DNA of 64,000 bases from Myxococcales bacterium (GCA_049841135.1 JASGHK010000008.1:147272-211271); one strand, 5' to 3'; positions 1 through 46,332 are shown, numbered from the stretch's first letter. The notes: a model not told the origin generated them from the sequence alone. Program-made: numbers and translations.

Positions 1-1971
1 TCCTTGACCACCTCTAGGAGTTCCCTCGCTGCCGCCTTCGCCTCCTCCGGGGTCGGTTCGGCAGGGACCGGCGCGCAGGGGCCGCTCGGACGGAAGAGAA
101 GCCCAGTCGCCCCGTCATAGCCCGGCTTGTCGATGATGCTGCCATCCGGCCGGAGAGATGGAGAGCCGATCACGCCGCGCAACTCGCGCACTCCTGGCCA
201 GTTGCCGCGACAGAGCGTGGCCGCGATGACTGTCCCTGGAGGGTCCATCGCGACAAGGCCCTTATCGGTTTCGTGGGCCCACCGCAGGAGGGCGCTGGCC
301 ACCTCCCAGAGCTGAGCCGCCGACAACTCGCGGACCACGGGCGCGCCAATCTCGCGGCGGCTGTGCGCGTTATCGGGTTGGCCTTCCCAGGCGGCCACCA
401 TCACGAGGTGCCCGTTGCGCTGATACACGTCCGGATGCCCAGCCAAAGCCTCGGTCAGCGCGGCAACCGATAGATGCCCATCGCTTGGGCGCCAGACGTG
501 GATCGGTCGCTCGTCTCCCCTCACCCTCGGGAGATCCCACTTCTTCCGCGCCATGCGCTTGAGTGTGCCGATCTTCTCGCCGGTCTTGCCCGACAAGAGC
601 CGCAGCCCCTCGTTGCGGTCCATTCTCGACGTGCGGGCCCTGGGCCTCTGCAAGTAGTTTCAGAACGCGATCGATCGCGTCGCGGAGAACGCCCTGCGGT
701 GAGTCCTTGGAGACCCCGGCCAACTCCTGATTGACGCGCCAGACGGTCGCGGGAGTCGCCGCTGCTATCCTCTCCTTCCACTTCTCGATGCCGTGCCGGT
801 GGATGAACTCGTCCGGATCAAGGTCATCAGGCAACCGCTCGACAACGAACGCGGCGATGCCCGCGCGTTGCAGCGCTTCGATGTTGGCGAGCGTGCCACG
901 ATCCCCGCCGCCGTCCGGGTCGCCACAGACACAGACCTTCTGCACTCCTCGCCGCCGCACCGTCTCCGTCTGCTCGCCGTTCAGTTGCGCCGAAACGGAC
1001 GCCACCACGCTGCTGTCTCCGCGAATCTGGGCAAAGGCTGCGTCGTTCACGCCCTCTACAAGAACGATCTCGCGGTTGCCATCCTCCAACGCGCGGTCGA
1101 GGAAGAAGGGCGACCGCTTCGTGTTCTCTCCAGGCAGGGCGAGAGTCTTTGGAACCCCCGTCTCCTTCCATTTCGTGGCTGCCTGTTTGTCGGGGGGCAG
1201 CGCCTGCCATGCGGCCCACTCCTCCTCGCGATCCTTCGCCCACGCCGCAGCGTCGCGCTTCTCTGGGGGTACCTCTGTGTGCCAGCGACCATAGAGGGTC
1301 AGCGGTCGACCGAACTCATCGTTCCAGAGATAGGTGATGAACCCTTCAAACTTGCGCCAGAGCAAGCAGGCCTCTCGCGCCTCGCCAAGATCGGCCCCTG
1401 CCCTGTGTAGCGCTTGCTCGACACGGGCCGCAGACAGATAGAGGCCCAAACCCAGATCGCGGATTTCGGCGTCGGTGTAGTGGCGCCCTTCGCGCAGGTA
1501 AGATCGCGCCCGTTCGCCCTCTGGGCTCCACAACTCCGAGACGCAGAACTCTTGGGCCACAGCTAGGGCCGTGCGGCGCTCCTCGCGTCGCCGTGCTTCC
1601 TCGAGCTGCTCGGGCGTCTGGTCTCGGTCCAGCGGGGAGGCGTCTACGCCCGCCAATCCAGCGAGTTTGCGGATTGCGCGGATGAAGTCCTCGCCGGTCG
1701 GCTTGCGGCCACCGTTCACGAGGTCCAAGAAGCGAACGCCCGCGTGGCCGTGCGTCTTGATCCACCAAGGGCGGTTTTCGTAGACGCAGAGGCGCTCCGG
1801 GTTCTCGTGCCCCACAGACTCGGGGAATCCGGCCGGCCACTTCGTCGCCTCCCAGCGGCGCCCCTTCTTCACCCACCCGAACTCGGGGAAGGCACGGTCG
1901 AGGTTGCGAAAGAGAGCGGGCAGCACCTCGTCCTCAAAGAAGGTGCTCGGCTTCAGGTCGGGGATGCTCAC
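1..1971 (-). CDS. TOPRIM-domain DNA primase-family protein (phage/plasmid type). It continues past the left window edge and is disrupted by indels.
   Basis: DnaG-like TOPRIM motifs EIVLVEGVNDA and VCVCGDPDGGGD in the 370..1971 ORF. Downstream, well-formed protein sequence continues in other minus frames to position 1 (…LLSGKTGEKIGTLKRMARKKWDLP…GYDGATGLLFRPSGPCAPVPAEPTPEEAKAAARELLEVVK). Frame switches at ~606-609 (C4 homopolymer), ~361 and ~300. Confidence 0.55.
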
Positions 1972-2255
1972 GACTCACCCCCGTCCGCGCCAACGGCCTG
2001 CTTCGGCATCGAAGGCTCTGCGCCTTCCGGCCGAGTCCGCAGCTCGCCACGTTGCAGCCCCAACGCACGTTCGACGCGAGCCACCCAGTCGCCGGGAGGC
2101 GTGGCCACTCCCCGAACCCACGCAGAAAGCGTGCTCGGTGACACGCTGAGTCGCTGCGCAAGTTGGGCCTGGGTGAGGTCCGCCAGTGCGAGCGCCGCCA
2201 GATACCGCCTGTGATCCAGTTGCACCATTTTCAGCCTCCGTTGCCGCGCGAACAT
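1968..2255 (-). CDS. XRE-family helix-turn-helix transcriptional regulator
   Basis: HTH signature LTQAQLAQRLSVSPSTLSAWVRG. Overlaps the primase start by 4 bp, so probably co-transcribed. Confidence 0.6.
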   Translation of the reverse strand: MFARQRRLKMVQLDHRRYLAALALADLTQAQLAQRLSVSPSTLSAWVRGVATPPGDWVARVERALGLQRGELRTRPEGAEPSMPKQAVGADGGES

Positions 2256-2321
2256 CGCGGCATCAACGGAAGGCAGGATGCGACTGGCGGGTGGGCTAAT
2301 CGACGGAACTAGGCGGTCGTT

Positions 2322-3161
2322 CTAGCTGCCCTCGTTTCCGCCTATTCCCTGGAGACGATCGTTCCGGAGACGAGCACTCTCGGCGTGCTCCTTGCGCCAG
2401 CGACCGATGCGCGCCTCTTCCTCGTTGACGTCACCGCAGGGGGGCTCTAGCCCAGCCACCACGGACAGCGCAGCAATGTCTCTGTAGGAGATTGCCATGC
2501 CATGCTTCTCTGCTGTCCCGAGTAGGGCTTGGGCGAAGGTTCGGCGTTGGTCCTGAGTGTAGGCGGACTGGTGCGCCGGCCCCTGTTGCTTGGCGTAGTC
2601 TTCAACGTCCCCCAAGTAGCAAGCCATGCGGCGCAACGTCTTCACAAACAGCGGCCACTCGGCAGCGAACCCGGGAGGCCAGGTCTTCCCCGGCGGGCCG
2701 ATCTTCCGGCACGACAAGTAGGCGTGCGCGAGTTCTCTCGCCAGGGCAGGCGACGCGTCCAAAAGGCGCCGATCGGCCACCAGACTAGGCAGCATCTGGG
2801 CGCATATTCCCTTCGCGTTCGTGATCAGGAGACCCGCCCGCTCGTCGCCATGAGTCGCAACGAGATAGGCGGTTGCTGTTTCGAGGCTCGCGGTCGCTGA
2901 TGGCTTCGCCTTTGGCCCAGTCTTCGCCCGCGCCTTCTTCGGAGCCGAGCGAGGCGGCGGGTCTGCGGAGGCTGGCCGCGAGACCTTGGCAGCAGGGATC
3001 GGAGGGAGTTCGACGCCGAGCCTGCGCGCGATTTCCTCGCCATCGGCGCATCGGTAGCAACTCGCCCGGGGACCCTTCTCGCGCTCGTGCCTCTGGCGCT
3101 TCGGACAGTCCTTCTCGGGAAGTTTGCACCGCAGTTTCCTGCAATAGAACGACGCGCCCAT
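2322..3161 (-). CDS. Hypothetical protein with an N-terminal Cys-rich (zinc-finger-like) segment
   Basis: ORF with a GGGAG RBS before MGASFYCRKLRCKLPEKDCP…CYRCADGEE. No family recognised. Confidence 0.4.
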   Translation of the reverse strand: MGASFYCRKLRCKLPEKDCPKRQRHEREKGPRASCYRCADGEEIARRLGVELPPIPAAKVSRPASADPPPRSAPKKARAKTGPKAKPSATASLETATAYLVATHGDERAGLLITNAKGICAQMLPSLVADRRLLDASPALARELAHAYLSCRKIGPPGKTWPPGFAAEWPLFVKTLRRMACYLGDVEDYAKQQGPAHQSAYTQDQRRTFAQALLGTAEKHGMAISYRDIAALSVVAGLEPPCGDVNEEEARIGRWRKEHAESARLRNDRLQGIGGNEGS

Positions 3162-3238
3162 GTTCCGCTCCCACAGCGGCCCCAGGTGAGAACCGGCGGC
3201 GGGCAGGCGCACTGGGGATGCGCTTTTCGGGAGCTACC

Positions 3239-3646
3239 CTAGCCCGCGCCGTTCAACTTGGACTCTACGCCTGGCCGTGCTGCTTCTCCCATTTGTGGAA
3301 CGAGGCCAGTTGCGCTTGCTGGCGGGCGCTGAAGCTGGCAAATGGGCGTGGTCATCGCTGCGTTGAGGTCCGCGAAGGTCGTCTTTCCGGTGCGCTCGCA
3401 GTAGGCGCGCTCCCGCATGTGGAACTGCTGGGCGGTGATCTCGACGTACCAGCGAAACGCGGGGTCCCGGCCGATGCCCGCCGCGATGCGCTCCGACGTG
3501 AGGATGGGCAGTTTGTTGGCGGCGGCCTTCACCTTCCTGGCGACCTCGCGCAACTCGGCGTCGGTGACAGGCTTGACGATGATGGCGGTCTCCGCGGCCG
3601 CGTTCTTGCTCTGCGAGGCTGGACGGTTCAACTTGGTGGTAGCCAT
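3239..3646 (-). CDS. Hypothetical protein
   Basis: 135-aa ORF in the same operon orientation as the RHH and primase genes. No recognisable domain. Confidence 0.35.
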   Translation of the reverse strand: MATTKLNRPASQSKNAAAETAIIVKPVTDAELREVARKVKAAANKLPILTSERIAAGIGRDPAFRWYVEITAQQFHMRERAYCERTGKTTFADLNAAMTTPICQLQRPPASATGLVPQMGEAARPGVESKLNGAG

Positions 3647-3761
3647 TGCGTCGCTCTCCGTGTTCGGCGCGGTGGTGAGGGCGGGGGTCCGGTTGCCGCC
3701 GGGCCTCCGTCCGTTCCTCCTTCCGGCGCGCCAGAACCCGGAGGGAGGAGGAAATCTTCGA

Positions 3762-4022
3762 CTAGCCGATTCCCCTCTTGGCCCTCTCTTGACGCGAGCC
3801 CATGCCCTTGACGGCGCTTGGAGCTCGGGGTGGGGCGATGCCCTCCTGCTTCTCTACAACCGGAAGCCCGGCGAGCAGAATCATGCGAACCACGTCCGTG
3901 GTCGTTGGCGCCAGTCCGGGGCGGGAGAGTTTCTCCTTCACCACCTCCAGGCGCTCGAAGAGTTCATGCTCCAACCTGATGGCGATCTGCGTCGTGTTCG
4001 GCGTCTTGTTCGTGGGCACCAT
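3762..4022 (-). CDS. Ribbon-helix-helix (CopG/Arc-like) DNA-binding protein
   Basis: AAGGAG RBS 6 bp upstream. N-terminal beta-strand plus two helices: TTQIAIRLEHELFERLEVVKEKLSRPGLAPTTTDVVRMILLAGL. Divergent from the resolvase gene. Confidence 0.5.
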   Translation of the reverse strand: MVPTNKTPNTTQIAIRLEHELFERLEVVKEKLSRPGLAPTTTDVVRMILLAGLPVVEKQEGIAPPRAPSAVKGMGSRQERAKRGIG

Positions 4023-4142
4023 GCGCGGCTCCTTGATCGTTGGAAGGAGTCTATTGGCGGTCGCAATATTTGTCAACCACGCATTGCGCGCATTGCTGGG
4101 TGGTGCTACTGTCCAAGTCGCACCCGCTCGGAGGTCTGCCCG

Positions 4143-4784
4143 ATGCCCAAGAGTCAGCCCGCTGCCGCCTGCTACCTGCGCGTCTCCAGCGACCGCCAGA
4201 CCGTCGAGAACCAGCGGGCCGAGGTAGAGGCGCTCGCACGGGCCAGGGGGCTAATGCCGGTCTTCTACGAGGAGACGGAATCCGCGGCGAAGAAGCGGCC
4301 CGAGTTCGACCGGATGCTGGCCGAGGTGCGGCGCGGAAAGGCTTCGGCCGTCGTCGTCTGGGCGCTCGACCGCCTACACCGCTCGATGGCGGGCGCAATC
4401 AACGACGTCTTGGAACTCGACCGCCTCAACGTGCGCGTCCTGTCGGTGCGGGAGCCCTGGCTAGACACGTCCGGCCCAGTTCGCCCCCTCCTCGTCGCCA
4501 TCTTCGGCTGGGTAGCCGAGCAGGAGCGGGCCCGGCTCATCGAGCGGACGAAGGCAGGAATCGAGCGCGCACGGGCCGAGGGGAAGCGGCTGGGGCGTCC
4601 GCCCACGTCGTCTATCCTTCTGCACGCGGCTCGCGATCTTGTCGCCGGGGGCGCGACTGTCGCGGCGGCAGCACGAGCCAAAGGCGTGTCCCGCGCAGCT
4701 CTCCGGCGCTTCCTGTCCGCTCAAGGTGGCCGAAAAGGTGTCTCCGGGGACCCCACTGGCGAGGCCCAGATTCCCGCCCCTTAA
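4143..4784 (+). CDS. Small serine recombinase (resolvase/invertase family) with a C-terminal HTH
   Basis: Catalytic-serine motif YLRVSSDRQ near the N-terminus. Resolvase-like core (VVVWALDRLHRS, ERTKAGIERARAEGKRLGRP). The in-frame ATG at 4143 sits inside the longer 3417..4784 ORF. Confidence 0.8.
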   Translation: MPKSQPAAACYLRVSSDRQTVENQRAEVEALARARGLMPVFYEETESAAKKRPEFDRMLAEVRRGKASAVVVWALDRLHRSMAGAINDVLELDRLNVRVLSVREPWLDTSGPVRPLLVAIFGWVAEQERARLIERTKAGIERARAEGKRLGRPPTSSILLHAARDLVAGGATVAAAARAKGVSRAALRRFLSAQGGRKGVSGDPTGEAQIPAP

Positions 4785-4900
4785 GGTGGGCGACCTCGGG
4801 TGGCCGGAAAGGGTCGTTATCGGCCGCCGGGTCTTCCCAAGCCCGCCACTTGCCGGCGCGCTCCCGTGGCAAGAGACTGAGGCACGGGGAGGTACATGCG

Positions 4901-5224
4901 ATGGCTAAGCGCGAAGCGGGGCGAGCCGTGGTGATCGACGGCTCCTATGGAAGTGACAACGTCTTCAGCCTTCGAATCTTCACGACCCGCGGCAAGCCGC
5001 TATCGCCAGGCGAGACAGATCGGCTGCTGAACGTGATCTCGGAGTATTTCCACGCCATCGGCTTCACTGCCATGAAGGTGGGGACCTACCGCCGCAACCG
5101 CCAAGGGGACGAGTTCCGCTTCCAAGTTGTGGAAAAGGGAGAGAAGTGGATGCCGGTCGAGCCTGTTGACCTGTCTAAGCTCCGAAAGCCGAAGCGGCAG
5201 CCGAAGACGAGGCGACGGCTCTAG
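4901..5224 (+). CDS. Hypothetical small protein
   Basis: GGGAGG RBS before ATG 4901. 107-aa ORF with no recognised domain. Confidence 0.35.
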   Translation: MAKREAGRAVVIDGSYGSDNVFSLRIFTTRGKPLSPGETDRLLNVISEYFHAIGFTAMKVGTYRRNRQGDEFRFQVVEKGEKWMPVEPVDLSKLRKPKRQPKTRRRL

Positions 5225-5274
5225 AGACCGCGAGCCGCAAGCGACGCACATCGTTCGAAGCCGCGTTGGCCGTG

Positions 5275-6351
5275 TTAGCGGCAGCAGGCGGGGCGTCCAG
5301 CAAGGACTTGCGCACAGGAGCCACTTGCGGCGAGCGGGGACTTCCAGAGGCTGTGGTCAGTCCACGTCGACGGCAATCCCATCGACGTTGCGAACAATGG
5401 ATCCTTGTCCACGCTCTGAAGAAGTCTTGCGGCGTCCTGCGCCCACTGCTCGCCTCCTGGCACTGGCTTAGTGAGGTGACGAAGGATGCTGAGGACACAG
5501 AAGACCCTCGTGTTCCCGAATTGCCAAGTTGGATCCTTCTTGGGCAGCAGCGGCTTGATCGACAGCTCGCGATTCCAAAGCCGCCCATGGTGTGCGCAAA
5601 CGTTTCGAACGTAACTGAGCGATCGAAGCCATGAGACGGCGACGATGGCGGTGACCCCGAATTCGCCGGCGATTGGCAATCTGTCGCCGGTCAACATGTT
5701 CTCAAATAGCAAAGAGAGGCTACCGAACGACATGACCTCTGATGCCATCCAGATCGGGATTGACGGGAAGCCGTTGTACTTCGACCGGAAGTGCCCCAGG
5801 AAGTTCTCGCGAGCGCGATGAGTTTCTTTGCGCAGCGAGTCGATCCAGTCTCTGTGTCCCACGGCCCATGAGTGGTCGAAGTTGCGCGCGTCCTCGTGGG
5901 CGAAGGCCCCATGCCTATGACCGAGTTGGTAGGTGATCTTCGTCCGCAGCAGGATCTCTACCCGCTGAATCGCATCGAAGACACACAGCCGCAAGCGTCG
6001 ATCGAACTCGTACAACTCAATCGCTCGCTCGAACGTCGCTCCCGCAATGAACGTGTCGTCGGGGTGCTTGAACGGGTGCCAGTAGGCGCTAAGGCGGTAG
6101 TAGCTGATGCGCGCCAAGCGCTCCAACGCACGCGGACGGTCGGCTACAGCAAGACCGCGACGCTCAAGAAGGGCGAGCTGGTCACTGAAAGTCAGCGCTT
6201 GCTTGCTGTATGGTTGCCCCACAGTTGTCAGTGTGGCTGTTCGCCAAGACGCTGGGCAAGAAAAAACCGGCCTGAGGCGCGTGGCCCTTGCGGACCAGAG
6301 GCGTGGCCGGTGTGTTGAAGGCATTTTGCGTCCCACAGGTTGTGGGGTCAA
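5275..6351 (-). CDS. Abi-like abortive-infection protein (Abi_2 / AbiD-AbiF family). The N-terminal start is uncertain.
   Basis: Family hallmark YSKQALTFSDQLALLERRGLAVADRPRALERLARISYYRLSAYWHPF followed by a conserved helical body. The true start is probably internal (TTG/GTG around 6225-6235). Confidence 0.7.
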   Translation of the reverse strand: MTPQPVGRKMPSTHRPRLWSARATRLRPVFSCPASWRTATLTTVGQPYSKQALTFSDQLALLERRGLAVADRPRALERLARISYYRLSAYWHPFKHPDDTFIAGATFERAIELYEFDRRLRLCVFDAIQRVEILLRTKITYQLGHRHGAFAHEDARNFDHSWAVGHRDWIDSLRKETHRARENFLGHFRSKYNGFPSIPIWMASEVMSFGSLSLLFENMLTGDRLPIAGEFGVTAIVAVSWLRSLSYVRNVCAHHGRLWNRELSIKPLLPKKDPTWQFGNTRVFCVLSILRHLTKPVPGGEQWAQDAARLLQSVDKDPLFATSMGLPSTWTDHSLWKSPLAASGSCAQVLAGRPACCR

Positions 6352-6413
6352 GAGGGAGATGTGTTAGCCGTTGGGGGTGTTTGCCCAACCCCTCGTCCTT
6401 GCTCGTCTTCTGC

Positions 6414-6677
6414 CTAGATCCCCTCCCGCATCACGCGCTCGATCTCCGTCCACGGCACCTTCCAGCGTCCATTGATGCGGATGGCGCGGATCCGCTTGCA
6501 GGCGACCAGTTCGTGCAGCGTGTCGTTGCGGCTAACGCCAAGCATGGATGCGGCCTGCGCAAACGAGAGCAGAGCACGCGGCGGGCGGCGCTTGTGTGAG
6601 AGCAACTCGTCCAGCTTCCGCTCGATGCGGTCCAACTGCTCCCGGAGAGCCTCCCACTCTGCCTTGGTCGGTTCCAT
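6414..6677 (-). CDS. AlpA/excisionase-family (HTH_17) DNA-binding protein
   Basis: LLSFAQAASMLGVSRNDTLHELVACKRIRAIRINGRWKVPWTEIER matches the Xis/AlpA helix-turn-helix pattern. Confidence 0.6.
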   Translation of the reverse strand: MEPTKAEWEALREQLDRIERKLDELLSHKRRPPRALLSFAQAASMLGVSRNDTLHELVACKRIRAIRINGRWKVPWTEIERVMREGI

Positions 6678-6793
6678 ACGAGCGTTCTAGTGCCTCGCGG
6701 ACTTCACGTCTCGTCTCGCGTGGCGCGTGGGCTTTGCGCGGCTGTCTCGCCGGGGCGTAGCATCCTCCCAAGCCGTCAACCGGGGAGGGACCG

Positions 6794-7408
6794 ATGCGAA
6801 TCGCCGTTGTGCTTGCGGGCGCTGTGAGCGCTGTTCTGGTCGCCCACCTCGGGGCTGGCCGCGCGTCAGCGGCCGAGCCCAAGAGGCGCCCCGATGCGAG
6901 CAAGGCCGTCACGCTAGATACTGAGCTTGGTTCTCTTCTCCAGGCAATGACCACCAAGTTGGCTGCTGGGGATTGCAAGGCCTCCACATGCGCGAAGGCC
7001 AATGAAGCAGCACGGAAGTCAGAAGCGGCACTGTCGCCATACCCGGTCGGTTCCTCCGCTGACTTGAAGTGGCACGCAGCCACTAGCAAATGGGCCACGG
7101 ACTTGGCGAGGCTGTGCCGAGATGCACGCCAGGAATCTGTTGATGCTGACGAAAACTTTGAGACACGCCTAAAGATGCGAGAGAAGCCGGTCTCTGACTG
7201 CGAAGGGAAGTGGCTCCTCTCTTCGTCGCTCGACGCGACCGCCAAGATTCTTCGGGCTGCCGCAAAGTCCCTTCCTGATGCGGAGGCGAGCAACAACACC
7301 GCGAATGACATGTACGAGCGGGCCGACGTCTTCGCCGCTGAGGCACTCAAGGCAACCAAATACTTCCACGCGGCCGGATGCTTCGTTGTCGAGACGACGG
7401 GTCCATAG
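6794..7408 (+). CDS. Secreted hypothetical protein
   Basis: GGGGAGGGA RBS. N-terminal signal peptide MRIAVVLAGAVSAVLVAHLGAGRASA. No family assigned. Confidence 0.45.
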   Translation: MRIAVVLAGAVSAVLVAHLGAGRASAAEPKRRPDASKAVTLDTELGSLLQAMTTKLAAGDCKASTCAKANEAARKSEAALSPYPVGSSADLKWHAATSKWATDLARLCRDARQESVDADENFETRLKMREKPVSDCEGKWLLSSSLDATAKILRAAAKSLPDAEASNNTANDMYERADVFAAEALKATKYFHAAGCFVVETTGP

Positions 7409-7515
7409 GCGCGAGACCGTTCTACCGATTGCTTCGTCTTCGGGGGCTTCGTCCTCATCGAACCAAGAAGCGTCCCCCCCCCCACCTTGCACTTGAGCCG
7501 TCGGGGAAGAGAGCC

Positions 7516-8814
7516 TCACTCCGTCGGGCAGTCGCCCGTCTTGGCCGTCAGCAGCCCATCCACAAACGTCAGCGTGCACGTTCCCTTGGCCGTGGTTACC
7601 GCCAGGTGCGTGGTAAGTCCCTGCCGCCAGTCGGTGTCGTAGCCGTAGAGAGTCGGGAAGTAGCCGCCGCCGAGCGCGTAGACGGTACCGTTGAACAGCT
7701 TGTTCCCGGCGAAGGTCTGGTCGGCCGTCGTGACGTGGCCTGCCTGCGATGCAGATGCGGCCTGCGTCGTCAGTGGGCTGCCGGCGGTTCCAGCGCCAGT
7801 GATGGGAGCGGAGACGTGCAGCGCCGCCGCCAGGCTGACCGACGACCAGACTGAGCCAGCGTCGCAGACCATGAGGAGTTGGTCAGTGGTGTTCCATGCC
7901 AGCGCGCCAGCGGCGCACACGGCCGGGAGGCTGCCCACCGTGTAGGAGCCGACGCGAACGGTCTGCGAGAAGTCGCCAGTCCAGCCGGATACCGTGCCCT
8001 GTACTGTGGCCCCATAGGCGTTGATGGTGTGCGTGTAGCCGCCGCCAGTCACGGTCAGCGTTGGGGTGGTGACCGAGGTTGAGAAGGTCTTGGCACCAGC
8101 CGCGGTCTCGTTCCCAGTGAGATGCAGCGCGTACGGATCGGACTCAGACACGCAGACCGGAGGCCCGTCCGAGGCCGTGGTCTTGAGGAAGGTGCCAGAG
8201 TCGCAAACTGGCCAGCCGCTTACCTTCCCGAGCCCGACGCCGTCGATCTCGCCGTCGCTGACGCACGGCCCCTCCAGGCAGTACAGGTTCCCTGCTGCGC
8301 TTGCCCAGTTCACCCAGTCGACGCAGGTAGGCGAGGCGCCGCCCACGGACGCGAGGTTGTACCCGGAGCCGCAGACCGGCCACTCACTGACCTTGGCAAG
8401 GCCGACCGTGGAGATCTCGGAATCGGCCACGCAACCGGAGCACTGGAGGTCTGCCGCAACGCTGGCCGTGGGGGCGTTGGTCGCGCAAGTCATGGCGCCA
8501 GTGCTCACGTTCCATCCGGTCATGAGGCCGCTGCCGCTGCAAGTCGTGCTGGCGCCGTTCCCCTTCACTCCGCCGAGGGTCGATGCTGACGCAACAGGAA
8601 GCGTGTAGCCGGGAGAAGTACCGCTGGGCGTGCAGTTGGTCCAGGCACCGCTACGGCAACACCAGACCTGGGCCGGGTTCGTCTGAGTGACCCAGACGCG
8701 TGACCCTACGCAAGTGCCGGAAGGGATGCCCTCGGCCACATAGACCGGAGGTCCCTGCAGTGCTTGCAACGCAAACGCAACCGCTACTGCGGCGCCTGAG
8801 CCAAGACAGTCCAT
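7516..8814 (-). CDS. Secreted cysteine-containing repeat protein (fibre/lectin-like)
   Basis: Start MDCLGSGAAVAVAFALQALQG (signal peptide, GGGAG RBS). Internal ~45-aa repeats (EISTVGLAKVSEWPVCGSGYNLAS / EIDGVGLGKVSGWPVCDSGTFLKT). Thr/Gly-rich beta-rich C-terminus. Confidence 0.5.
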   Translation of the reverse strand: MDCLGSGAAVAVAFALQALQGPPVYVAEGIPSGTCVGSRVWVTQTNPAQVWCCRSGAWTNCTPSGTSPGYTLPVASASTLGGVKGNGASTTCSGSGLMTGWNVSTGAMTCATNAPTASVAADLQCSGCVADSEISTVGLAKVSEWPVCGSGYNLASVGGASPTCVDWVNWASAAGNLYCLEGPCVSDGEIDGVGLGKVSGWPVCDSGTFLKTTASDGPPVCVSESDPYALHLTGNETAAGAKTFSTSVTTPTLTVTGGGYTHTINAYGATVQGTVSGWTGDFSQTVRVGSYTVGSLPAVCAAGALAWNTTDQLLMVCDAGSVWSSVSLAAALHVSAPITGAGTAGSPLTTQAASASQAGHVTTADQTFAGNKLFNGTVYALGGGYFPTLYGYDTDWRQGLTTHLAVTTAKGTCTLTFVDGLLTAKTGDCPTE

Positions 8815-9254
8815 GACCAACTCCCATCCGAGTTTTGAAGGCAGATCAAAAGTTGCTCCGGAGTGCCTTCGTCCTGCACACGTACAAAGCGGCCAAGCCA
8901 GTTTGGACCTGGGGCCGGAAGCAGTTCGGTCTTGCCGGGCACTGCGCCCGAGGTGACGAACCGCGGCGGGTACATCGCTACCGTGTTCCAAGACCACCGA
9001 TGCTCATTGTTGGTGCTCGCGTCCTGCAGACAGACCTGCAACTGCTCGGGGGTTCGGAGGCTGTCCCAGACGCGAATCAACTCGCCAGCCTGGGCCTCGC
9101 CTGCCTTGAGCCGCTTCGCTGTCGTAACCCTGGGCGGATAGGACATTGCCCAAGCAGTAAGGACACGGAGAGCGGCGATAACCTGGTCCTGGAACCGAGC
9201 TAGGACTCCGTCGTTGACGTGGAGGCGCATGGGCTGCGGGAAGTTCCGGGGCAT
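8784..9254 (-). CDS. Hypothetical protein with two copies of a ~30-aa CLQ…SWSW repeat
   Basis: Repeats IRVWDSLRTPEQLQVCLQDASTNNEHRWSWNTV and VRVQDEGTPEQLLICLQNSDGSWSWTVL. Paralogous to the adjacent upstream gene. Confidence 0.45.
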   Translation of the reverse strand: MPRNFPQPMRLHVNDGVLARFQDQVIAALRVLTAWAMSYPPRVTTAKRLKAGEAQAGELIRVWDSLRTPEQLQVCLQDASTNNEHRWSWNTVAMYPPRFVTSGAVPGKTELLPAPGPNWLGRFVRVQDEGTPEQLLICLQNSDGSWSWTVLAQAPQ

Positions 9255-9274
9255 GGCGTGCGGCTCCTTGAGGT

Positions 9275-9571
9275 TCAGGCCTTCGCCACTGTTGCCCAGT
9301 GCCACGAGTCGTCGGCCCGCTGCAGGCAGATCACCAGCGAATCCGCCTCGCCCTCGTTCACCAGCCGCACCATGCACCCCTCGAAGAACGCGGACGGGGC
9401 CGGGAGCGCCTGGGGCGTGTAGCAGGGGAGGCGCCGCTTGAACCGAGCGAGCAAGACACGCGGCAGGGCTCGGAGGGCGGCCCACAATTCAGCCAGAAAT
9501 TCCCGATTTCGATTCATTTGTAATTCTTTCATTGTTTGCGTGCGCCGAGCAATCAGACAATCCGGCTTCAC
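9275..9571 (-). CDS. Hypothetical protein, a paralogue carrying one CLQ…SWHW repeat
   Basis: VRLVNEGEADSLVICLQRADDSWHWATV plus an N-terminal helix similar to the neighbouring gene. The start may be at an internal Met (MKELQ). Confidence 0.4.
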   Translation of the reverse strand: MKPDCLIARRTQTMKELQMNRNREFLAELWAALRALPRVLLARFKRRLPCYTPQALPAPSAFFEGCMVRLVNEGEADSLVICLQRADDSWHWATVAKA

Positions 9572-9682
9572 TCTTGCTGAATACTAGCGAAATTCATTCT
9601 TGATATTGCATTCTATCACGCGATAGCCCTAATCGAGCGTATAATTATCATCAACAAATCGCATCAAATAGGAGTCTTCCCG
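9486..9682. promoter_or_regulatory. AT-rich intergenic island, likely a divergent promoter region inside the acquired element
   Basis: ~200 bp of roughly 35-40% GC in a 70% GC background. Contains TATAAT-like hexamers (tataat, tattg) and short inverted repeats. Lies between divergently oriented genes. Confidence 0.45.
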
Positions 9683-9940
9683 ATGGCTGAGAACGAGCCC
9701 GCGCCGCGCCCTGGTTCAGTCGTGCCGCTCCCACCTCGACACCGCAAACTGCGAAGCGCCGCGAACGTGCGCAGCCTCATGGCGTGGATCGTCCGGGAGT
9801 TGGAAGCCAACCGCCTGGACCCCGAGCGGGCGCGCGCCATGACCATGGCTGCCCAGACGCTGCTCAAGTCCATCGAGACGGCCACGCTTGAGAAGAAGAT
9901 CAAGGACTTCGAAGCCAGCCGGCGAGCGGGCACGCTGTGA
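9683..9940 (+). CDS. Hypothetical small protein
   Basis: AGGAG RBS directly upstream. 85 aa. First gene of a three-gene operon. Confidence 0.45.
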   Translation: MAENEPAPRPGSVVPLPPRHRKLRSAANVRSLMAWIVRELEANRLDPERARAMTMAAQTLLKSIETATLEKKIKDFEASRRAGTL

Positions 9941-10206
9941 ACTACAAGCGCATGCGCCGGAGGGTGGAGCGCCTCATTGCCCAGCTCGAACAACGGCAGG
10001 GCGCTGCAGCCGTCAACAACCAGGTCCTCGCGCGCGAGCCCAAGCCGCCCGCACTGCGCATCGCCGGGCCGGTGGATGCCACTGCAGCCGACTGGGCCGG
10101 GAGACTGCTGCGCCTACCTCCCGAGGTCCGCCGCGCCGCGGTTGAGCGCATGGGCCAGGTGCTTGCCGAGGTCGAGCAAGACGCAGCGAAATCTTCGGGG
10201 AAGTAG
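9937..10206 (+). CDS. Hypothetical small basic protein
   Basis: GTGA start/stop overlap with the preceding gene. 89 aa. Confidence 0.4.
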   Translation: MNYKRMRRRVERLIAQLEQRQGAAAVNNQVLAREPKPPALRIAGPVDATAADWAGRLLRLPPEVRRAAVERMGQVLAEVEQDAAKSSGK

Positions 10207-10262
10207 CGGCCGGTTTTCATAATTTGCACTCGCGGGCTCGCGCTCGCAGTCGAGGTGAAGCG

Positions 10263-10727
10263 ATGCCTACCCTCCGCTTGCCTGAAGCCCCCTCGCTTCG
10301 AACAGAGCAAGGCCTTTGGGCCCTCGGGTATCGCTGGGTGTGGGGTATCGCAGCCTTCGGGCTCGCTCGTGACGGACAGCCGCAGAGCATCCACGCCGCA
10401 GCCGTCTTGCTCCCCGAGGACTTCAAGCCGGCAGACCTGGCGCCCGAGGTCATCCGCCAGCGCGTGCGAGCGTGCGCGTTCGGTTCGGCCGAGGTCACGA
10501 GAGGCGCACCCCTTCGCCGGGTAGGACTTCGGGCCGCACAGCGGGCGGTCGACGCCCTGGGCCTGCCGCTCGACTACCTGCTACGTGGCTTCTCGTATGA
10601 CCTGCCGGGCACCTACGTTCCTGGCGAGCACATCGAACAGGGCGAGCAACGGTGTCTGAGCATCGCCGCAGCCGCAACCCTCGCCGGATTGGCAGTCCGG
10701 GAACGGATGGCACAGTCTGGCGCGTGA
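10263..10727 (+). CDS. RNase HII-like protein with substituted catalytic residues (predicted inactive)
   Basis: GAGGTG RBS. RNase HII-like blocks are recognisable: VWGIAAFGLARDG (where RnhB has GVDEAGRGP), DYLLRGFSYDLP (RnhB YVLIDGNRCPKLP) and EQRCLSIAAAATLAG (RnhB GDSRVPEISAASILAK). The D-E-D-D catalytic positions read A-A-R-E. Confidence 0.45.
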   Translation: MPTLRLPEAPSLRTEQGLWALGYRWVWGIAAFGLARDGQPQSIHAAAVLLPEDFKPADLAPEVIRQRVRACAFGSAEVTRGAPLRRVGLRAAQRAVDALGLPLDYLLRGFSYDLPGTYVPGEHIEQGEQRCLSIAAAATLAGLAVRERMAQSGA

Positions 10728-10728
10728 C

Positions 10729-11124
10729 CTACTGCTTCGCGGCACCCGCTGCCGCCGGCTGCGTCTTCTTCCACTCCTCAAACGCCGCCTTGGCCTGCCT
10801 GTCCTGCTCCTCGGCGCTGAGCGGGGCGATCTTTTCAGTAGCCGTGACCGGGTTGGCGGCAGTGGGCGCTACGGGCACTTGGGCCGGCGGGGTGGCGCAC
10901 TGGATGGCGATGAAGCCGTTGACGCTGGTTGCCTCATCAATGATGTAGCCGTCGGGGCACGCGTCCCCAGCGCGCGCGACGCAGTTGGAGTGATTCCGGC
11001 ACCTGATCCCCAACCAGTCGGCGCCATCGGGCCCGCGGAAGACGTCGGTCCGGGCCCTGCTCGCGCAACTCAGGGTGAGTGCAAACGCTACGACAACGAC
11101 TGCGAAGCCGGCGCCGCGAATCAT
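10729..11124 (-). CDS. Secreted hypothetical protein
   Basis: Start MIRGAGFAVVVAFALTLSCASRA (signal peptide). Cys-containing small domain, then an Ala/Pro-rich tail. Confidence 0.45.
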   Translation of the reverse strand: MIRGAGFAVVVVAFALTLSCASRARTDVFRGPDGADWLGIRCRNHSNCVARAGDACPDGYIIDEATSVNGFIAIQCATPPAQVPVAPTAANPVTATEKIAPLSAEEQDRQAKAAFEEWKKTQPAAAGAAKQ

Positions 11125-11545
11125 GGGAAAACCCCCGCAGCGGGAAAGATAGCACGGCGCCAATCTCGGGTCGGCGGTCGTGCTCCCGGGCGCACCACCC
11201 ACGTTCCGCGCCGCGACGTTGCCCTGCTCCGCACGCTCTCTGCCTTCCCTTGGCCCTCTGTCTGCAACGGGGGCGCTGGACGGGTTCTCGATGGAGGGAG
11301 GGCGGCGGGATGACAGCGGACAGGATGTTTCGGAAGCTCGCAGCGCTGGCGCTGGCCGTGGGCGAGTTGGAGCTACAGACCGCCCAGAAAGAGCGCGACT
11401 GGCAGCGAGTCCGACGGGCAAGACTGCTCCTAGCCGCAGCCGAACGGTTCGCCAGCGCGCTGCTCAGCACGGGCGTTGAGGTCCACTTGACCTTGGATGG
11501 GCTCTGACCCCGAGGTGCTACAGTGCCGAGCGGGAGGCCTAGACC

Positions 11546-12196
11546 ATGACTCGGCTCGTAGTCGCTGCGATCGCATGCCTTGTGGCTGCCAACTGCACGG
11601 GCCCGGCGGGGGCGCAAGGGGCAAAAGGAGAACAGGGGCCCCAAGGCGTAGTTGGTCCGACTGGCGCGACTGGGGCAACGGGGGCTACCGGAGTAGCAGG
11701 CGCGACAGGGGCCCAAGGAGACCCAGGCACCAAGGGCGATCAAGGTGAACAGGGAGCGAAGGGCGACCCCGGCGCAGCATGCAGGCAGGCAGTCTTGAAG
11801 ACAGCAAATGGCGCCGTCGTTGGAGTGGGAGTGGCGCCGTTCGGGCCTCCCAACTTCGATACGACCGTGACCGCGTTCAACACTGCGGCCAACAAGTTGA
11901 TGGTCGTGCGGCTGGACACCGGACGCCTGGACGTTCGCGCCGTCGTCTACTTCGAAGACGCCTACTGCGGCGGGAAGGCGTGGATTGAGAAGACAGGAGC
12001 CGTCCTAGTCGAAGGCGAGAGCACGACGCGTCTCTTCGCCCCCACTTTCACCAAGGCTCAGTCCTTCCAAGCGGGCTCGATGATCGCCATGCAGGGATGC
12101 ATCAGCAACAGCAAGTCCGGCACTGGCTATCCCGTGACGGAAGTGACCGACCCCGCCTATCCCTACGCCACGCCGCTGGAGATCGTGCTCCAGTAG
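11546..12196 (+). CDS. Collagen-like triple-helix repeat protein (secreted/lipoprotein)
   Basis: Signal peptide [19 protein letters not shown]. About 25 Gly-X-Y triplets ([28 protein letters not shown]…). Globular C-terminal domain. Confidence 0.65.
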
Positions 12197-12298
12197 CCCT
12201 CTCAGACCGCCCGGCCGGCGGGCACAGATTCTCGCGAGCTGCCACGCGGGTGACTCGGCGTGCAGCGGGTCTCGCTAGCTCGAACGTAGGATCGCGCA

Positions 12299-12625
12299 AT
12301 GCCCGAGAAGAAGCCCCAGGAACTCCGCGTGAGGATCGTCAACACCTGCGCCAACGAGGCGGAAGAGGAGGACGTGCGGCGCGAACTCGTGCAATGGATG
12401 CTGCGAGTAGACGCCCGGTGCCAGGCCGAGGACGCCCTGGTCAAGCACACCGTCAACGCCATGACTGCGGATGAGCGCGAGCGGATCCGAAGCATCAACA
12501 TCGCAAACACCCGGGCTGAACGGTTACGGGTCTGGAGGGACTATGTGGCCTGGCTCCAGCGAGTGAAGGCCGACGTCGGAGGGAACAAGCATCAGAAGAC
12601 GCCTCGCGCAAGGCGGCGCAGTTGA
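12299..12625 (+). CDS. Hypothetical protein
   Basis: 108-aa ORF, charged and helical. No family recognised. Confidence 0.35.
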   Translation: MPEKKPQELRVRIVNTCANEAEEEDVRRELVQWMLRVDARCQAEDALVKHTVNAMTADERERIRSINIANTRAERLRVWRDYVAWLQRVKADVGGNKHQKTPRARRRS

Positions 12626-12655
12626 CCTGTTCGTGGAAGCGAGCGCTTAGGGGGT

Positions 12656-12895
12656 GTGCCGATGCCTGACGACAAGAAGCCGAAGCCCCATTGGCAAGAG
12701 GAGGGAGAGCTTCCCACCGATGAGTGGGTGAAGCAGATGGCAGCCGAGATCAGGGCCAAGCGGGAACGGAAGCGCCAAGAAGGCAAAGCGCAGAAGCAGC
12801 CACCGACCACGGACGACCCGCCCATGTTCAGACTTGGTGGGCAACCGCCTGTTGAGCCGCCACCTCGGGACCCGCCCGAGGACGAAGAAGGCTAG
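12656..12895 (+). CDS. Hypothetical small charged protein
   Basis: 79-aa ORF rich in K/E/P. Confidence 0.3.
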   Translation: MPMPDDKKPKPHWQEEGELPTDEWVKQMAAEIRAKRERKRQEGKAQKQPPTTDDPPMFRLGGQPPVEPPPRDPPEDEEG

Positions 12896-13353
12896 TCTTC
12901 GACACCCAGACGACCCGAAAGAGGAAGCGCGCGAATCGCGTCCCTGTCTCCTTTGGACAGAGGGATCTTCTTCGCCCGAGCAGCGATAGCGGCCCAGTCG
13001 CCAGGTTGGGTTGGCGCGGCTCGTTCGTCCTTTGGCCGTGGTGGCAACTCGCGCACCGGGTCTTCTTCAAGTGCCGCTACCACGGAAGCACGGAAGACCA
13101 TCGTGCGTCGGCCGATTCGTCTGGCTCGACGGACCACTCCGTCCCGAATGAGCGCGAAGACGTGGGTGCGCCCGCAGCGGAGGAGTGTGGCCGCCTCATC
13201 GACGGTGACCACGAGTGGTTTCTCGACGGCATCGTTGGGCCGAGAGGCTTGGTCTTTAGTTGCTGAAGACTTCGCCTCGACCAGCGCCACGAGTCTCCGG
13301 GTCAAATGGACGAGTTCGACCAGCAACTCCCGTTCAGTCTCAAGAGTGGGCAT
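12892..13353 (-). CDS. AlpA/excisionase-family (HTH_17) DNA-binding protein at the element end
   Basis: [47 protein letters not shown]. Located directly next to the comM junction. Confidence 0.6.
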
Positions 13354-13539
13354 GCGCGAAGCCTAGCCCGACGCGCCAGGAGGCCTCAGGACGAACGTGC
13401 AGCGTGGCCCATCTGGGAGCCCAACCCACTACCTGTGACGCGCAGGAAGGGCTGTTTTGGCGGTTTGGCGGGCCACGGCGGGCGGGCCTTCCTACACCGC
13501 GACCGAGAGGAGAAACGGTACCCCGGACATATGTCCCGA

Positions 13540-14426
13540 CTGGGTTGATGCTCGGGCCGCCTGGCTCTGGGAAGACGATGCTCGCCAAGCGCCTGCCCAC
13601 CATCCTGCCGGGCATGAGCTTCGAGGAAGCGCTCGAGACGACGAAGGTCTACAGCGTCGTGGGCATGGTCGGCGACCGCTCGCTCATCTACGAGCGCCCC
13701 TTCCGCGCGCCGCACCACACCATCAGCGACGCTGGCCTCATCGGCGGCGGCTCGGTGCCGCGGCCGGGCGAGGTCTCGCTCGCGCACAACGGCGTGCTCT
13801 TCCTGGACGAGCTGCCCGAGTTCAAGAAGAACGTCCTCGAGGTCCTGCGCCAGCCTCTGGAGGACGGCAAGGTCACCATCGCTCGCGCCGCGCAGACCAT
13901 CACCTTCCCCTCGCGGATGATGCTGCTGGCGGCGATGAACCCCTGTCCCTGCGGCCACGCGGGCAGCGGCACGCACCCCTGCAACTGCAACCCCAAGGAG
14001 GTCCTGAGTTACCGCTCGCGGATCAGCGGGCCGCTGCTGGACCGGATCGACCTGCACGTCACCGTGCCGCCGGTGCGCTACCGCGACCTGACGCCGCAGC
14101 GCGAGGGCGAGACCTCCGCGGCGCTGCGCGAGCGAGTCCAGCAGGCGCGGGCGCTGCAGCTGACCCGCTTCCTGCGGACGCCGGGCACCCACTGCAACGC
14201 GCAGATGACGCCCCGGCAGATCCGCCGGTTCTGCGAAGTCGACGCCGAGGGCGCCTCGCTGCTGCAGAACGTGGTCGACCGGGTCGGCATGAGCGCGCGG
14301 GCCTACGACCGCATCCTCAAGGTCGCCAGGACGATCGCCGACCTCGACGGCTCCGAGGCCATCCGCTCGAGCCACGTCAGCGAGGCCATCAGCTACCGGA
14401 CGCTCGACAGGAAGCTTCCGGCTTGA
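13540..14426 (+). pseudogene. comM: comM/yifB (Mg-chelatase-like AAA+ competence protein), 3' two-thirds only. The N-terminal Lon-like domain is missing.
   Basis: Homology begins abruptly at Walker A ([17 protein letters not shown]) and runs through the ChlI AAA+ and C-terminal domains (AAMNPCPCG…). The ~200-aa N-terminal domain is absent, and the upstream DNA encodes the oppositely oriented Xis-like gene. Confidence 0.75.
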
Positions 14427-14524
14427 AGGGCGCCGCCGGCGCGCCTCCGGAGGATGGGCCTCCGGGGCGCGGGCGGGCGGCGGTTCACACGACGAGCCCT
14501 GGGCAAGGGCGGGAGGGGAGAGGC

Positions 14525-15572
<1,048 letters not shown>

Positions 15573-46300: not shown

Positions 46301-46332
46301 TCATCGTGGACGAGGAGGACGGGGCCGGCCAT
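40365..46332 (-). CDS. Giant (~1990 aa) protein: N-terminal receiver-like domain, acidic 38-aa repeats, very long E/R/A-rich coiled-coil (26-aa repeats), C-terminal DnaJ (J) domain. Apparent frameshift at ~41095.
   Basis: N-terminus [28 protein letters not shown]… is REC-like. Repeats [26 protein letters not shown] x11. C-terminus [32 protein letters not shown] (HPD motif) lies in the 40365..41855 frame, joined at …GYIRPQ | KLYPLVRK. Confidence 0.6.
43790..44700. repeat. Near-perfect 78-bp tandem repeat array (~11 copies), coding for the 26-aa coiled-coil repeats
   Basis: Unit CCTGCTCTGCCCGCTCGGCCTCTTCCTTGGCCTTGGCTTCCGCCGCGAGCCGCTCCGCTTCTTCTGCGGCCAGCCGCT recurs with 1-3 substitutions per copy. 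Confidence 0.8.
45190..45720. repeat. 114-bp tandem repeats (~4.5 copies), coding for acidic 38-aa repeats ([38 protein letters not shown])
   Basis: The protein shows four to five near-identical 38-aa units. The DNA is correspondingly periodic. Confidence 0.65.

Follow-up and report, generated by a model that had tools for sequence, protein, structure and literature searches.

Introduction

The gene comM encodes a helicase that drives branch migration in natural transformation, and the mobile elements that disrupt it are thought to protect themselves in this way from deletion by incoming DNA. We analysed a 64,000-nt stretch of DNA (hereafter the window; GC content ~0.69, locus tags QM765_473xx, no tRNA genes) from a metagenome-assembled genome (MAG) of a member of the Myxococcales (GCA_049841135.1), in which comM is cut by a mobile element. 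The window belongs to a contig of 1,652,613 bp, the annotated proteins of which are matched exactly by the truncated ComM (P0001, 292 aa) and by a Toprim protein (P0121). With a probability that we put at roughly 0.72, positions 1 to ~13547 represent the right-hand arm of a foreign integrative element, inserted in comM by a large serine recombinase (LSR) encoded to the left of the window. The window shows only the attR half of an otherwise ordinary integration, and the locus is a further case of a type of event already known.

Several LSR elements split host genes and can act as reversible switches, including Listeria A118/phi10403S (comK) and the Bacillus subtilis elements SPbeta (sprA) and skin (spoIVCA). 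The locus described here resembles A118, SPbeta and skin in the LSR-type insertion within an open reading frame (ORF), the excision of which would restore the gene, and comK is also a competence gene. However, the target gene and the phylum are different, and the arm seen in the window has no phage structural genes. Another parallel is offered by the myxophage Mx8 (intP/intX), in which attP lies inside the integrase gene and integration rewrites the 3′ end of that gene. A similar arrangement exists in two relatives of the window (loci L008 and L004) and in the more distant clade of locus L124, where the recombinase ORF crosses attL and the C-terminal tail is swapped; the window keeps the displaced tail at attR. 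Nevertheless, the Int protein of Mx8 is a tyrosine recombinase with its attB in a tRNA gene, whereas the present system would involve a serine recombinase and a motif in a protein-coding gene.

Interruptions of comM are common in Acinetobacter baumannii, where AbaR and other mobile genetic elements with defence systems are found in the Mg-chelatase (AAA+) domain of the gene, and the loss of ComM has been suggested to hinder the removal of such elements by transformation (PMC11472951). The AbaR/AbGRI and other islands of A. baumannii hit the same domain of comM and often carry defence cargo, but the AbaR elements are Tn7-like transposons, whereas the junction in the window has the att features of a serine recombinase. 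The serine-recombinase phages of the sr1WO group (phage WO) integrate in a Mg-chelatase gene of Wolbachia, designated chlI in PMC5062602, the two halves of which flank the element; secondary sites and rearranged copies have also been described (PMC9203015, PMC5062602). Phage WO and the window would thus share an LSR-type insertion in a gene of the Mg-chelatase type, the LSR of the window being presumed to lie outside it, but phage WO, whose host is an alphaproteobacterial endosymbiont, is a complete tailed phage, whereas the arm in the window is without a structural module. We take the chlI target of WO to be a gene of the YifB/ComM type. The WO recombinases were absent among the tblastn matches listed for either of the two LSR clades considered below; among these matches, the best phage hits for both clades were mycobacteriophage and Firmicutes integrases with <30% identity. 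Beyond the papers on Wolbachia phage WO, we found no literature linking serine integrases to comM.

The element ends inside comM

An initial annotation of this DNA had proposed a mobile integrative element abutting a truncated comM. The onset of homology, the empty site in related genomes and the lower GC content of the region bear this out. Homology to comM begins at 13539-13544, which corresponds to approximately residue 215 of the 509-aa ComM homologue P0002, and DNA homology to a relative represented by loci L002, L003 and L007 (one genome, the ComM of which is 92% identical to that of the window) starts at 13544 and extends 10.8 kb rightward. The break point falls in the sequence ...AAGGHNA, after its last residue and immediately ahead of the Walker A box. 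The initial annotation had correctly set the boundary at this box, but the position is 13544-13550 and not 13540. It had also correctly reported the absence of the N-terminal part of ComM: the Pfam Mg_chelatase match begins only at position 26 of the 207-position profile, and the ChlI domain of the N-terminus is lacking. Neither a comM 5′ fragment nor any other piece of comM, including an intact paralogue, was found in the 64 kb, and attR does not restore the gene.

The junction comprises the following features.

13492..13545, minus strand: orphaned 3′ end of an LSR gene, last 17 codons followed by a stop; P arm of attR, with ACCCCGG at 13520-13526
13544..13550, plus strand: predicted crossover region G-TTGATG, aligned with the attB of L007, the attP of L086 and attL/attR of L008/L001
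13548..14426, plus strand: comM 3′ fragment (codons ~217-509), open over 293 codons; Walker A box at 13554-13577

We propose that an LSR encoded at the unseen left end would have recombined an attP, contained in the 3′ end of the LSR gene or adjoining it, with an attB in the part of comM that codes for the Walker A box, the crossover taking place within TTGATG (13545-13550). As a result, comM would have been split at codon ~216, and the last 17 codons of the LSR gene would have been stranded at attR on the minus strand. The evidence consists of an exact junction, an empty site, LSR insertions at the same codon in two relatives, an LSR tail with P-arm signature at attR and the presence of the element a second time in the MAG. 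Excision would be expected to restore comM exactly. The loss of ComM would presumably lower transformation-mediated recombination and could thereby shield the element from curing.

The comM 3′ fragment shows 92% amino acid identity to P0002 and 100% to the annotated 292-aa protein P0001. Its ratio of nonsynonymous to synonymous substitution rates (dN/dS) against L007 is 0.11, and pairs of intact genes give values of 0.15-0.21. As the value for the fragment is not above that of the intact pairs, the insertion would be either recent or reversible. The possibility that the fragment is an old dead paralogue of comM was considered and is ruled out by synteny and dN/dS. The GC content is 0.650 for positions 1-13543 and 0.697 for the rest of the window, where every 13.5-kb block has a value of at least 0.665. 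This shift in composition across the junction is counted here as support for a foreign origin of 1-13543.

Serine-recombinase signature at attR

A hidden Markov model (HMM) was built from nine C-terminal tails of LSRs, with the window left out, and scanned against the 1268 stop-to-stop peptides obtained from the six frames of the window. The top match coincided exactly with the remnant at 13492-13545 (E 2.5e-4), and the runner-up had an E value of 0.036. The tails of free-form enzymes that resemble the remnant are AGVPLRFVALVG, PGVPFRIETMVA and VVLPFRLSVAV.... LSR homologues with 60-64% identity are encoded, without comM, in what appear to be free phage genomes (L085 and L086/L087/L090), and in L085 and L086/L090 the free form has its attP within the last ~20 codons of the recombinase gene. 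Because attP lies inside the 3′ end of the LSR gene itself, displaced tail codons are expected at attR after integration.

The att sequences agree in detail. The attP of L086 reads GGCACCCCGGCAGATTGGGCACCGCATCTTGATGCTCGGCCC, the attR of the window GGTACCCCGGACATATGTCCCGACTGGGTTGATGCTCGGGCC and that of L001 GGAACCCCGGGCATACGGTCAGATTGCCATCATGATCGGCCC. The distance from ACCCCGG to the core ATG is exactly 28 nt in the window, L001, L085 and L086, and an 11-nt core, TTGATGCTCGG, is common to the attP of L086, the window and the intact allele of L007. By these alignments and the LSR-tail remnant, the element-side arm of the junction is homologous to the attP of LSR-encoding relatives. Loci L008 and L001 belong to one contig, L008 carrying the comM 5′ half and L001 the 3′ half; attL contains ATGATT and attR ATGATC, which places the crossover of this element within ATGAT. 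The equivalent in the window is TTGATG at 13545-13550. A metagenome scan with a degenerate attR pattern gave 0 matches.

The position of the break by itself would also suit a Tn7-like transposon of the AbaR/Tn6022 type homing to comM as in A. baumannii, the Mg-chelatase domain of comM being a known AbaR target (PMC11472951). We consider this origin extremely improbable. The junction agrees with the att sites of LSRs, terminal arrays of transposase-binding motifs were not found near 13400-13543, and no TnsA/B/C- or TniA/B/C-like domains are encoded in the 13.5 kb.

The same site in related genomes

A scan of species-representative genomes with the ComM N-terminus yielded 80 loci that were kept, none of them from the source MAG, and only in L004 and L008 is the gene split at this place. 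The set of close genomes comprised the window and seven relatives. The site is empty in five of these eight genomes (L005, L006, L007, L009 and L027), and comM is split at the same codon in the other three, namely the window, L004 and the genome carrying L008 and L001. Comparison with relatives having an uninterrupted comM, as envisaged in the initial annotation, located the intact gene followed by recA in L002/L003/L007, L005, L006 and L009, and the relative represented by L002 and L007 shares the whole downstream gene order with the window. The distance from L008 to L001 corresponds to an insertion of 41.6 kb, which is a prophage.

In both L008 and L004, the gene abutting the comM 5′ half codes for a protein of ~510 aa with Resolvase, Recombinase and Zn_ribbon_recom domains and converges on comM; its ORF extends 71-80 nt across the junction into the comM fragment. 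No tyrosine integrase was found in the sequence seen beside attL of L004 and L008. The att overlap of L008/L001 amounts to only ~11 codons of similar sequence, with no long repeat. At this site, the element was simply inserted in an attB found intact in relatives, and no long duplication accompanied the event.

The fate of the recombinase tail in these relatives is worth describing separately. The last ~10 residues of the integrated LSRs of L008 (10620-10700) and L004 (2480-2560), ...LRCDHRRRR and ...WRCGRPRRR, respectively, derive from antisense comM. In the free attP form, the L008 enzyme would end in ...LGQS, and integration thus alters the C-terminus of the recombinase.

Gene content of the visible arm

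Gene calls were checked against Pfam, PADLOC and PHROGs. The visible arm (1-13543) contains the following genes.

1..1971, minus strand: primase-helicase gene (Toprim part 625-1971, central domain 3-623), running on past position 1
1968..2255, minus strand: XRE-family HTH regulator, 95 aa (Pfam HTH_3 1.9e-9, HTH_31)
2322..3161, minus strand: hypothetical protein, 279 aa, with a Cys-rich N-terminus; exact match to MGC4122068 (QM765_47310)
3239-3646, minus strand: small hypothetical protein, 135 aa (MGC4122069)
3762-4076, minus strand: small hypothetical protein, 104 aa
4143-4784, plus strand: small serine recombinase of the resolvase/invertase type, 213 aa (Pfam Resolvase 2.8e-36)
4901-5224, plus strand: hypothetical protein, 107 aa, following the small resolvase
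5275..6351, minus strand: AbiD/Abi_2 abortive-infection defence gene (Pfam Abi_2 1.9e-55; PADLOC AbiD 8e-72)
6414..6677, minus strand: HTH_17 protein, 87 aa, regulator or excisionase-like (Pfam HTH_17 2.6e-7, phrog_66)
6794-7408, plus strand: secreted protein, 204 aa, at the start of a cargo block (6794..12895) that includes the next seven entries
7516-8997, minus strand: Cys-repeat, tail-fibre-like protein, 493 aa
8784-9254, minus strand: repeat-motif protein, 156 aa, no family match
9275-9571, minus strand: repeat-motif protein, 98 aa, no family match
9683-10727, plus strand: small ORFs
10729-11124, minus strand: lipoprotein-like protein, 131 aa
11546-12196, plus strand: collagen-repeat, lipoprotein-like protein (Pfam Collagen 1.1e-9)
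12299-12895, plus strand: ORFs of 108 aa and 79 aa
12892..13353, minus strand: HTH_17 protein, 153 aa (HTH153; Pfam HTH_17 8.7e-8), last element gene before attR

The modules of the visible arm are replication (primase-helicase), regulation (XRE and the two HTH_17 proteins), defence (resolvase and AbiD) and secreted or lipoprotein cargo. This composition looks like that of a self-replicating island, a satellite or the accessory arm of a prophage, and unlike the structural arm of a phage. No terminase, portal, capsid or tail modules were detected in the visible 13.5 kb, where the only matches of this kind were a sub-threshold one to BppL_N and those driven by collagen repeats. Scans of IMG/VR with the primase, the 153-aa HTH_17 protein and the LSR alignment found nothing close.

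The Toprim ORF (625-1971) matches Pfam Toprim_2/3/4 and the PHROG DNA primase family, and the ORF that leaves the window at position 1, corresponding to the central domain, matches phrog_29234 (4e-13); together they constitute a single primase-helicase gene, split by an extra A near 625. The neighbouring 279-aa, 135-aa and 104-aa proteins gave no family match in Pfam, PHROG or PADLOC. Homologues of the small resolvase (36-43% identity) occur in several serine-recombinase loci of the metagenome scan, and in L124 and L112, where both comM halves are seen, such a homologue lies directly upstream of the LSR. We considered the small resolvase as the integrase of the element and rejected it, as its layout is that of resolvases and invertases, whereas the tail found at the junction is that of an LSR. 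Its position beside AbiD is a pairing reported to be typical of defence loci (PMC13552941). No convincing repeats indicative of invertible segments or of an internal att site were found near the small resolvase and the tail-fibre-like gene.

Matches of the cargo block to PHROGs are weak or driven by collagen repeats. The 493-aa protein contains two Cys-rich repeats of the form C..G.CV.D.EI..VGL.KVS.WP.C.SG...P.CV, followed by a segment weakly similar to the N-terminal motifs of phage tail-fibre/baseplate proteins (BppL_N 1.8e-4, below the cutoff). The 156-aa protein contains two copies of a motif ...VR(V/L)xDxxxPEQLxICLQxxDGSWSW..., and the 98-aa protein contains one; both proteins are encoded just downstream of this gene.

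Most gene assignments of the initial annotation hold: the Toprim primase, the XRE regulator, the small serine recombinase, Abi_2 and the collagen-like protein all had counterparts in at least one of the three databases. The supposed RHH regulator, by contrast, corresponds to the 104-aa protein (3762-4076), which had no family match at E<=0.01, and the reported AT-rich island is merely a relative dip, the GC minimum of the region being 0.60 over 5001-6000, at the AbiD gene. Two AlpA/Xis-like excisionases had also been proposed. Both proteins do possess HTH_17 domains and are of a generic type, but with an LSR-type junction they may be regulators rather than excisionases. The integrase and the left end of the element had rightly been placed outside the window, the 64 kb having neither an LSR gene or Phage_integrase domain nor the comM 5′ half.

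A second copy in the same MAG

A second, near-identical copy of the element was found on a 3,313,968-bp contig of the same MAG (MGC4116956-69, within the protein series MGC4116956-MGC4116979, locus tags QM765_208xx); the corresponding series on the contig of the window is MGC4122067-MGC4122086. Six element proteins are identical in the two copies, namely HTH153 (MGC4116956 in copy 2), the 108-aa, 89-aa and 107-aa proteins, the 87-aa HTH_17 protein and the resolvase, and two further proteins are present as near-identical variants. The truncated ComM, the SEC-C protein encoded downstream of it and the 279-aa protein are single-copy in the MAG. Copy 2 includes HTH153 but neither the truncated comM nor the SEC-C gene, which independently maps the right end of the mobile unit to the interval from HTH153 to the comM fragment. 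The copies are not the same throughout: the stretch from the 126-aa gene to the primase encodes seven intervening proteins in copy 2 and a single one in the window, and the twin of the 135-aa protein is frameshifted in copy 2. The six identical proteins suggest recent activity. The second copy may reflect a secondary site, a rearrangement or strain heterogeneity in the bin.

This copy also bears on the view, put forward in the initial annotation, that the region is a composite element or that two different elements, both equipped with an Xis-like gene, accumulated side by side at comM. The presence of two HTH_17 genes at a distance of 6 kb, the mosaic orientation of the genes and a GC content varying between 0.60 and 0.68 could be read in this way. 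However, no internal core, att copy or long repeat was detected in 1-14500, and the two HTH_17 proteins show no sequence similarity and are not paralogues. In addition, copy 2 keeps the whole block from HTH153 to the 135-aa gene with the same spacing of 15 genes, and the presence of both HTH_17 genes at this spacing argues for one unit. Tandem accretion thus seems very unlikely.

Frameshifts recur in this assembly. In the primase-helicase gene, the window has GAGAATGG near 625, where the copy-2 twin has GAGATGG; this twin (P0182, 749 aa) reads through the position (...GPHVEMDRNEG...) but is out of frame further downstream. The large host ORFs of 1836 and 1960 aa are open over most of their length, and the tail of the latter looks out of frame. 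The pattern fits sporadic long-read errors at modified adenines.

The recA gene next to comM (14525-15572) shows a comparable case. It has an extra A near 15122, at a GATC site (GAAGAATCGG, against GAAGATCGG in L007), and no protein record. The frameshift may be a long-read error at a methylated adenine, or recA may be a real pseudogene here. A second recA paralogue is found near the comM locus in relatives (L002 1-245).

Such observations have to be considered with regard to another scenario, in which the element is a decayed, 'grounded' LSR remnant that lost its recombinase or left arm, or was rearranged by recombination with copy 2, leaving comM permanently dead. No LSR protein of the source MAG is present in the protein collection, the primase-helicase is frameshifted in both copies, at different places, and copy 2 could have served as a rearrangement substrate, as for sr1WO in wRi (PMC9203015). 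Nevertheless, the frameshifts have the appearance of sequencing errors (an additional A in each of the two cases, in one case within GATC, with recA affected as well), the comM 3′ fragment is without decay, and the identity of six proteins between copies indicates recent activity. We therefore regard grounding as rather unlikely.

Weighing the evidence

Several observations weigh against an element placed in comM by an LSR. The 64-kb window contains no LSR gene, and attL and the comM 5′ half are unseen, as they would lie beyond position 1. When 5.8 billion proteins were searched with the LSR of L008, none was recovered from either contig of the source MAG; this is weak evidence, because assembly frameshifts would leave genes as pseudogenes without a protein record. 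The second copy lies outside comM, which is unexpected for a strictly site-specific integrase. The visible arm has no genes in common with the LSR prophage of L001/L008, and its comparison with the elements of L001, L008 and L004 by tblastx and tblastn gave compositional noise only. Finally, the nearest homologue of the primase (L084, 51% identity) is encoded in an island with the order int(Tyr)-HTH_17-primase-DnaB.

This last island, together with the two HTH_17 genes, one of them right at the element end, is what could be expected of a genomic island moved by a tyrosine integrase with an Xis-type excisionase. Such islands, however, usually restore the end of their target gene from attP, whereas here comM is cut in the middle of its ORF. 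The attR carries the C-terminal remnant of an LSR and the P-arm motif, and in both relatives with comM interrupted at this codon, attL is crossed by an LSR, and no tyrosine integrase was seen beside it. A tyrosine-integrase island is, in our opinion, unlikely, and integration by an LSR, with the recombinase gene beyond position 1, is the reading that we favour.

The host flank

To the right of comM, the window encodes RecA, a SEC-C protein, a 113-aa protein and Poly_export (13.5-17.2 kb), in the same order as in L002/L003/L007. The comM-recA block is inverted with respect to its flanks between the lineage of L007 and the window and that of L009, L005, L008 and L004; in the latter lineage, Poly_export and a 1837-aa gene are located upstream of comM. 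The 1836-aa host protein of the window (19436-24946, minus strand), which is FG-GAP/Big_9-like in a relative, contains internally repeated segments that give off-diagonal BLAST matches to L002. The 1960-aa ORF (40450-46332, minus strand) has a receiver-like N-terminus and a long, near-perfect tandem repeat, and its C-terminal ~200 aa look out of frame. The tandem repeat accounts for the extreme AT and GC skew at 42-45 kb.

A distant recombinase clade and other comM islands

A metagenome scan with the LSR alignment revealed a second, distant clade of LSRs (loci L103-L165, from soil metagenomes), 22-30% identical to the L008 enzyme and 35-65% identical to that of L124. Some 40 loci of this clade have the recombinase directly beside a broken comM, the break lying at one of two sites other than that of the window. 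Among them are 29 in which the recombinase ORF and the broken comM 5′ half overlap, usually by 38-44 nt, and the 5′ half ends at codon ~351-362 (27 loci; AAMNPCPCG motif) or at codon ~324-325 (two loci). The junction of L112 is less clean, with a 218-nt overlap at codon ~322. In seven more loci, the recombinase lies beside the comM 3′ half.

Both comM halves are seen around islands of ~10.3 kb (L124), 10.6 kb (L112) and 7 kb (L155). The island of L124 encodes DUF4145, a primase-helicase with DUF3854 and AAA_25, a small resolvase 38% identical to that of the window and the LSR, and has no structural genes. In L164, a primase-helicase is encoded directly upstream of the LSR that abuts comM, and its central domain is 33% identical to that of the window over 171 aa (E 1e-15). 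By analogy with islands of the L124 and L164 type, the LSR of our element may be encoded only a few kb to the left of the window, and the whole element could measure ~17-20 kb, as a self-replicating island and not a full phage; a larger prophage is also possible.

It is tempting, though still speculative, to view these loci as a broad and apparently undescribed superfamily of LSR-borne elements, from small islands to prophages, that home to conserved comM motifs (Walker A at ~217, ~323 and MNPCPCG at ~353) in diverse soil metagenomes. With attP in the 3′ end of the LSR gene, the swap of its tail to antisense comM might provide a built-in record of the integration state, and the elements could be reversible switches of transformation-linked recombination. 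For a regulated switch at the present locus, the evidence is indirect, consisting of the intact comM 3′ fragment with its dN/dS of 0.11, and such a role would have to be regarded as possible only.

The locus extends the pattern of comM interruption to uncultured Myxococcales and, beyond Tn7-like transposons, to serine-recombinase elements. The most interesting leads are a recombinase lineage homing to three conserved comM motifs and an integration that rewrites the C-terminus of the recombinase. The distribution of the insertions suggests that an entire lineage of recombinases uses comM as a general homing target. If true, this lineage could be a source of new site-specific integrases, the target of which is conserved and predictable, and it would give a way to ask whether comM insertions are reversible switches.

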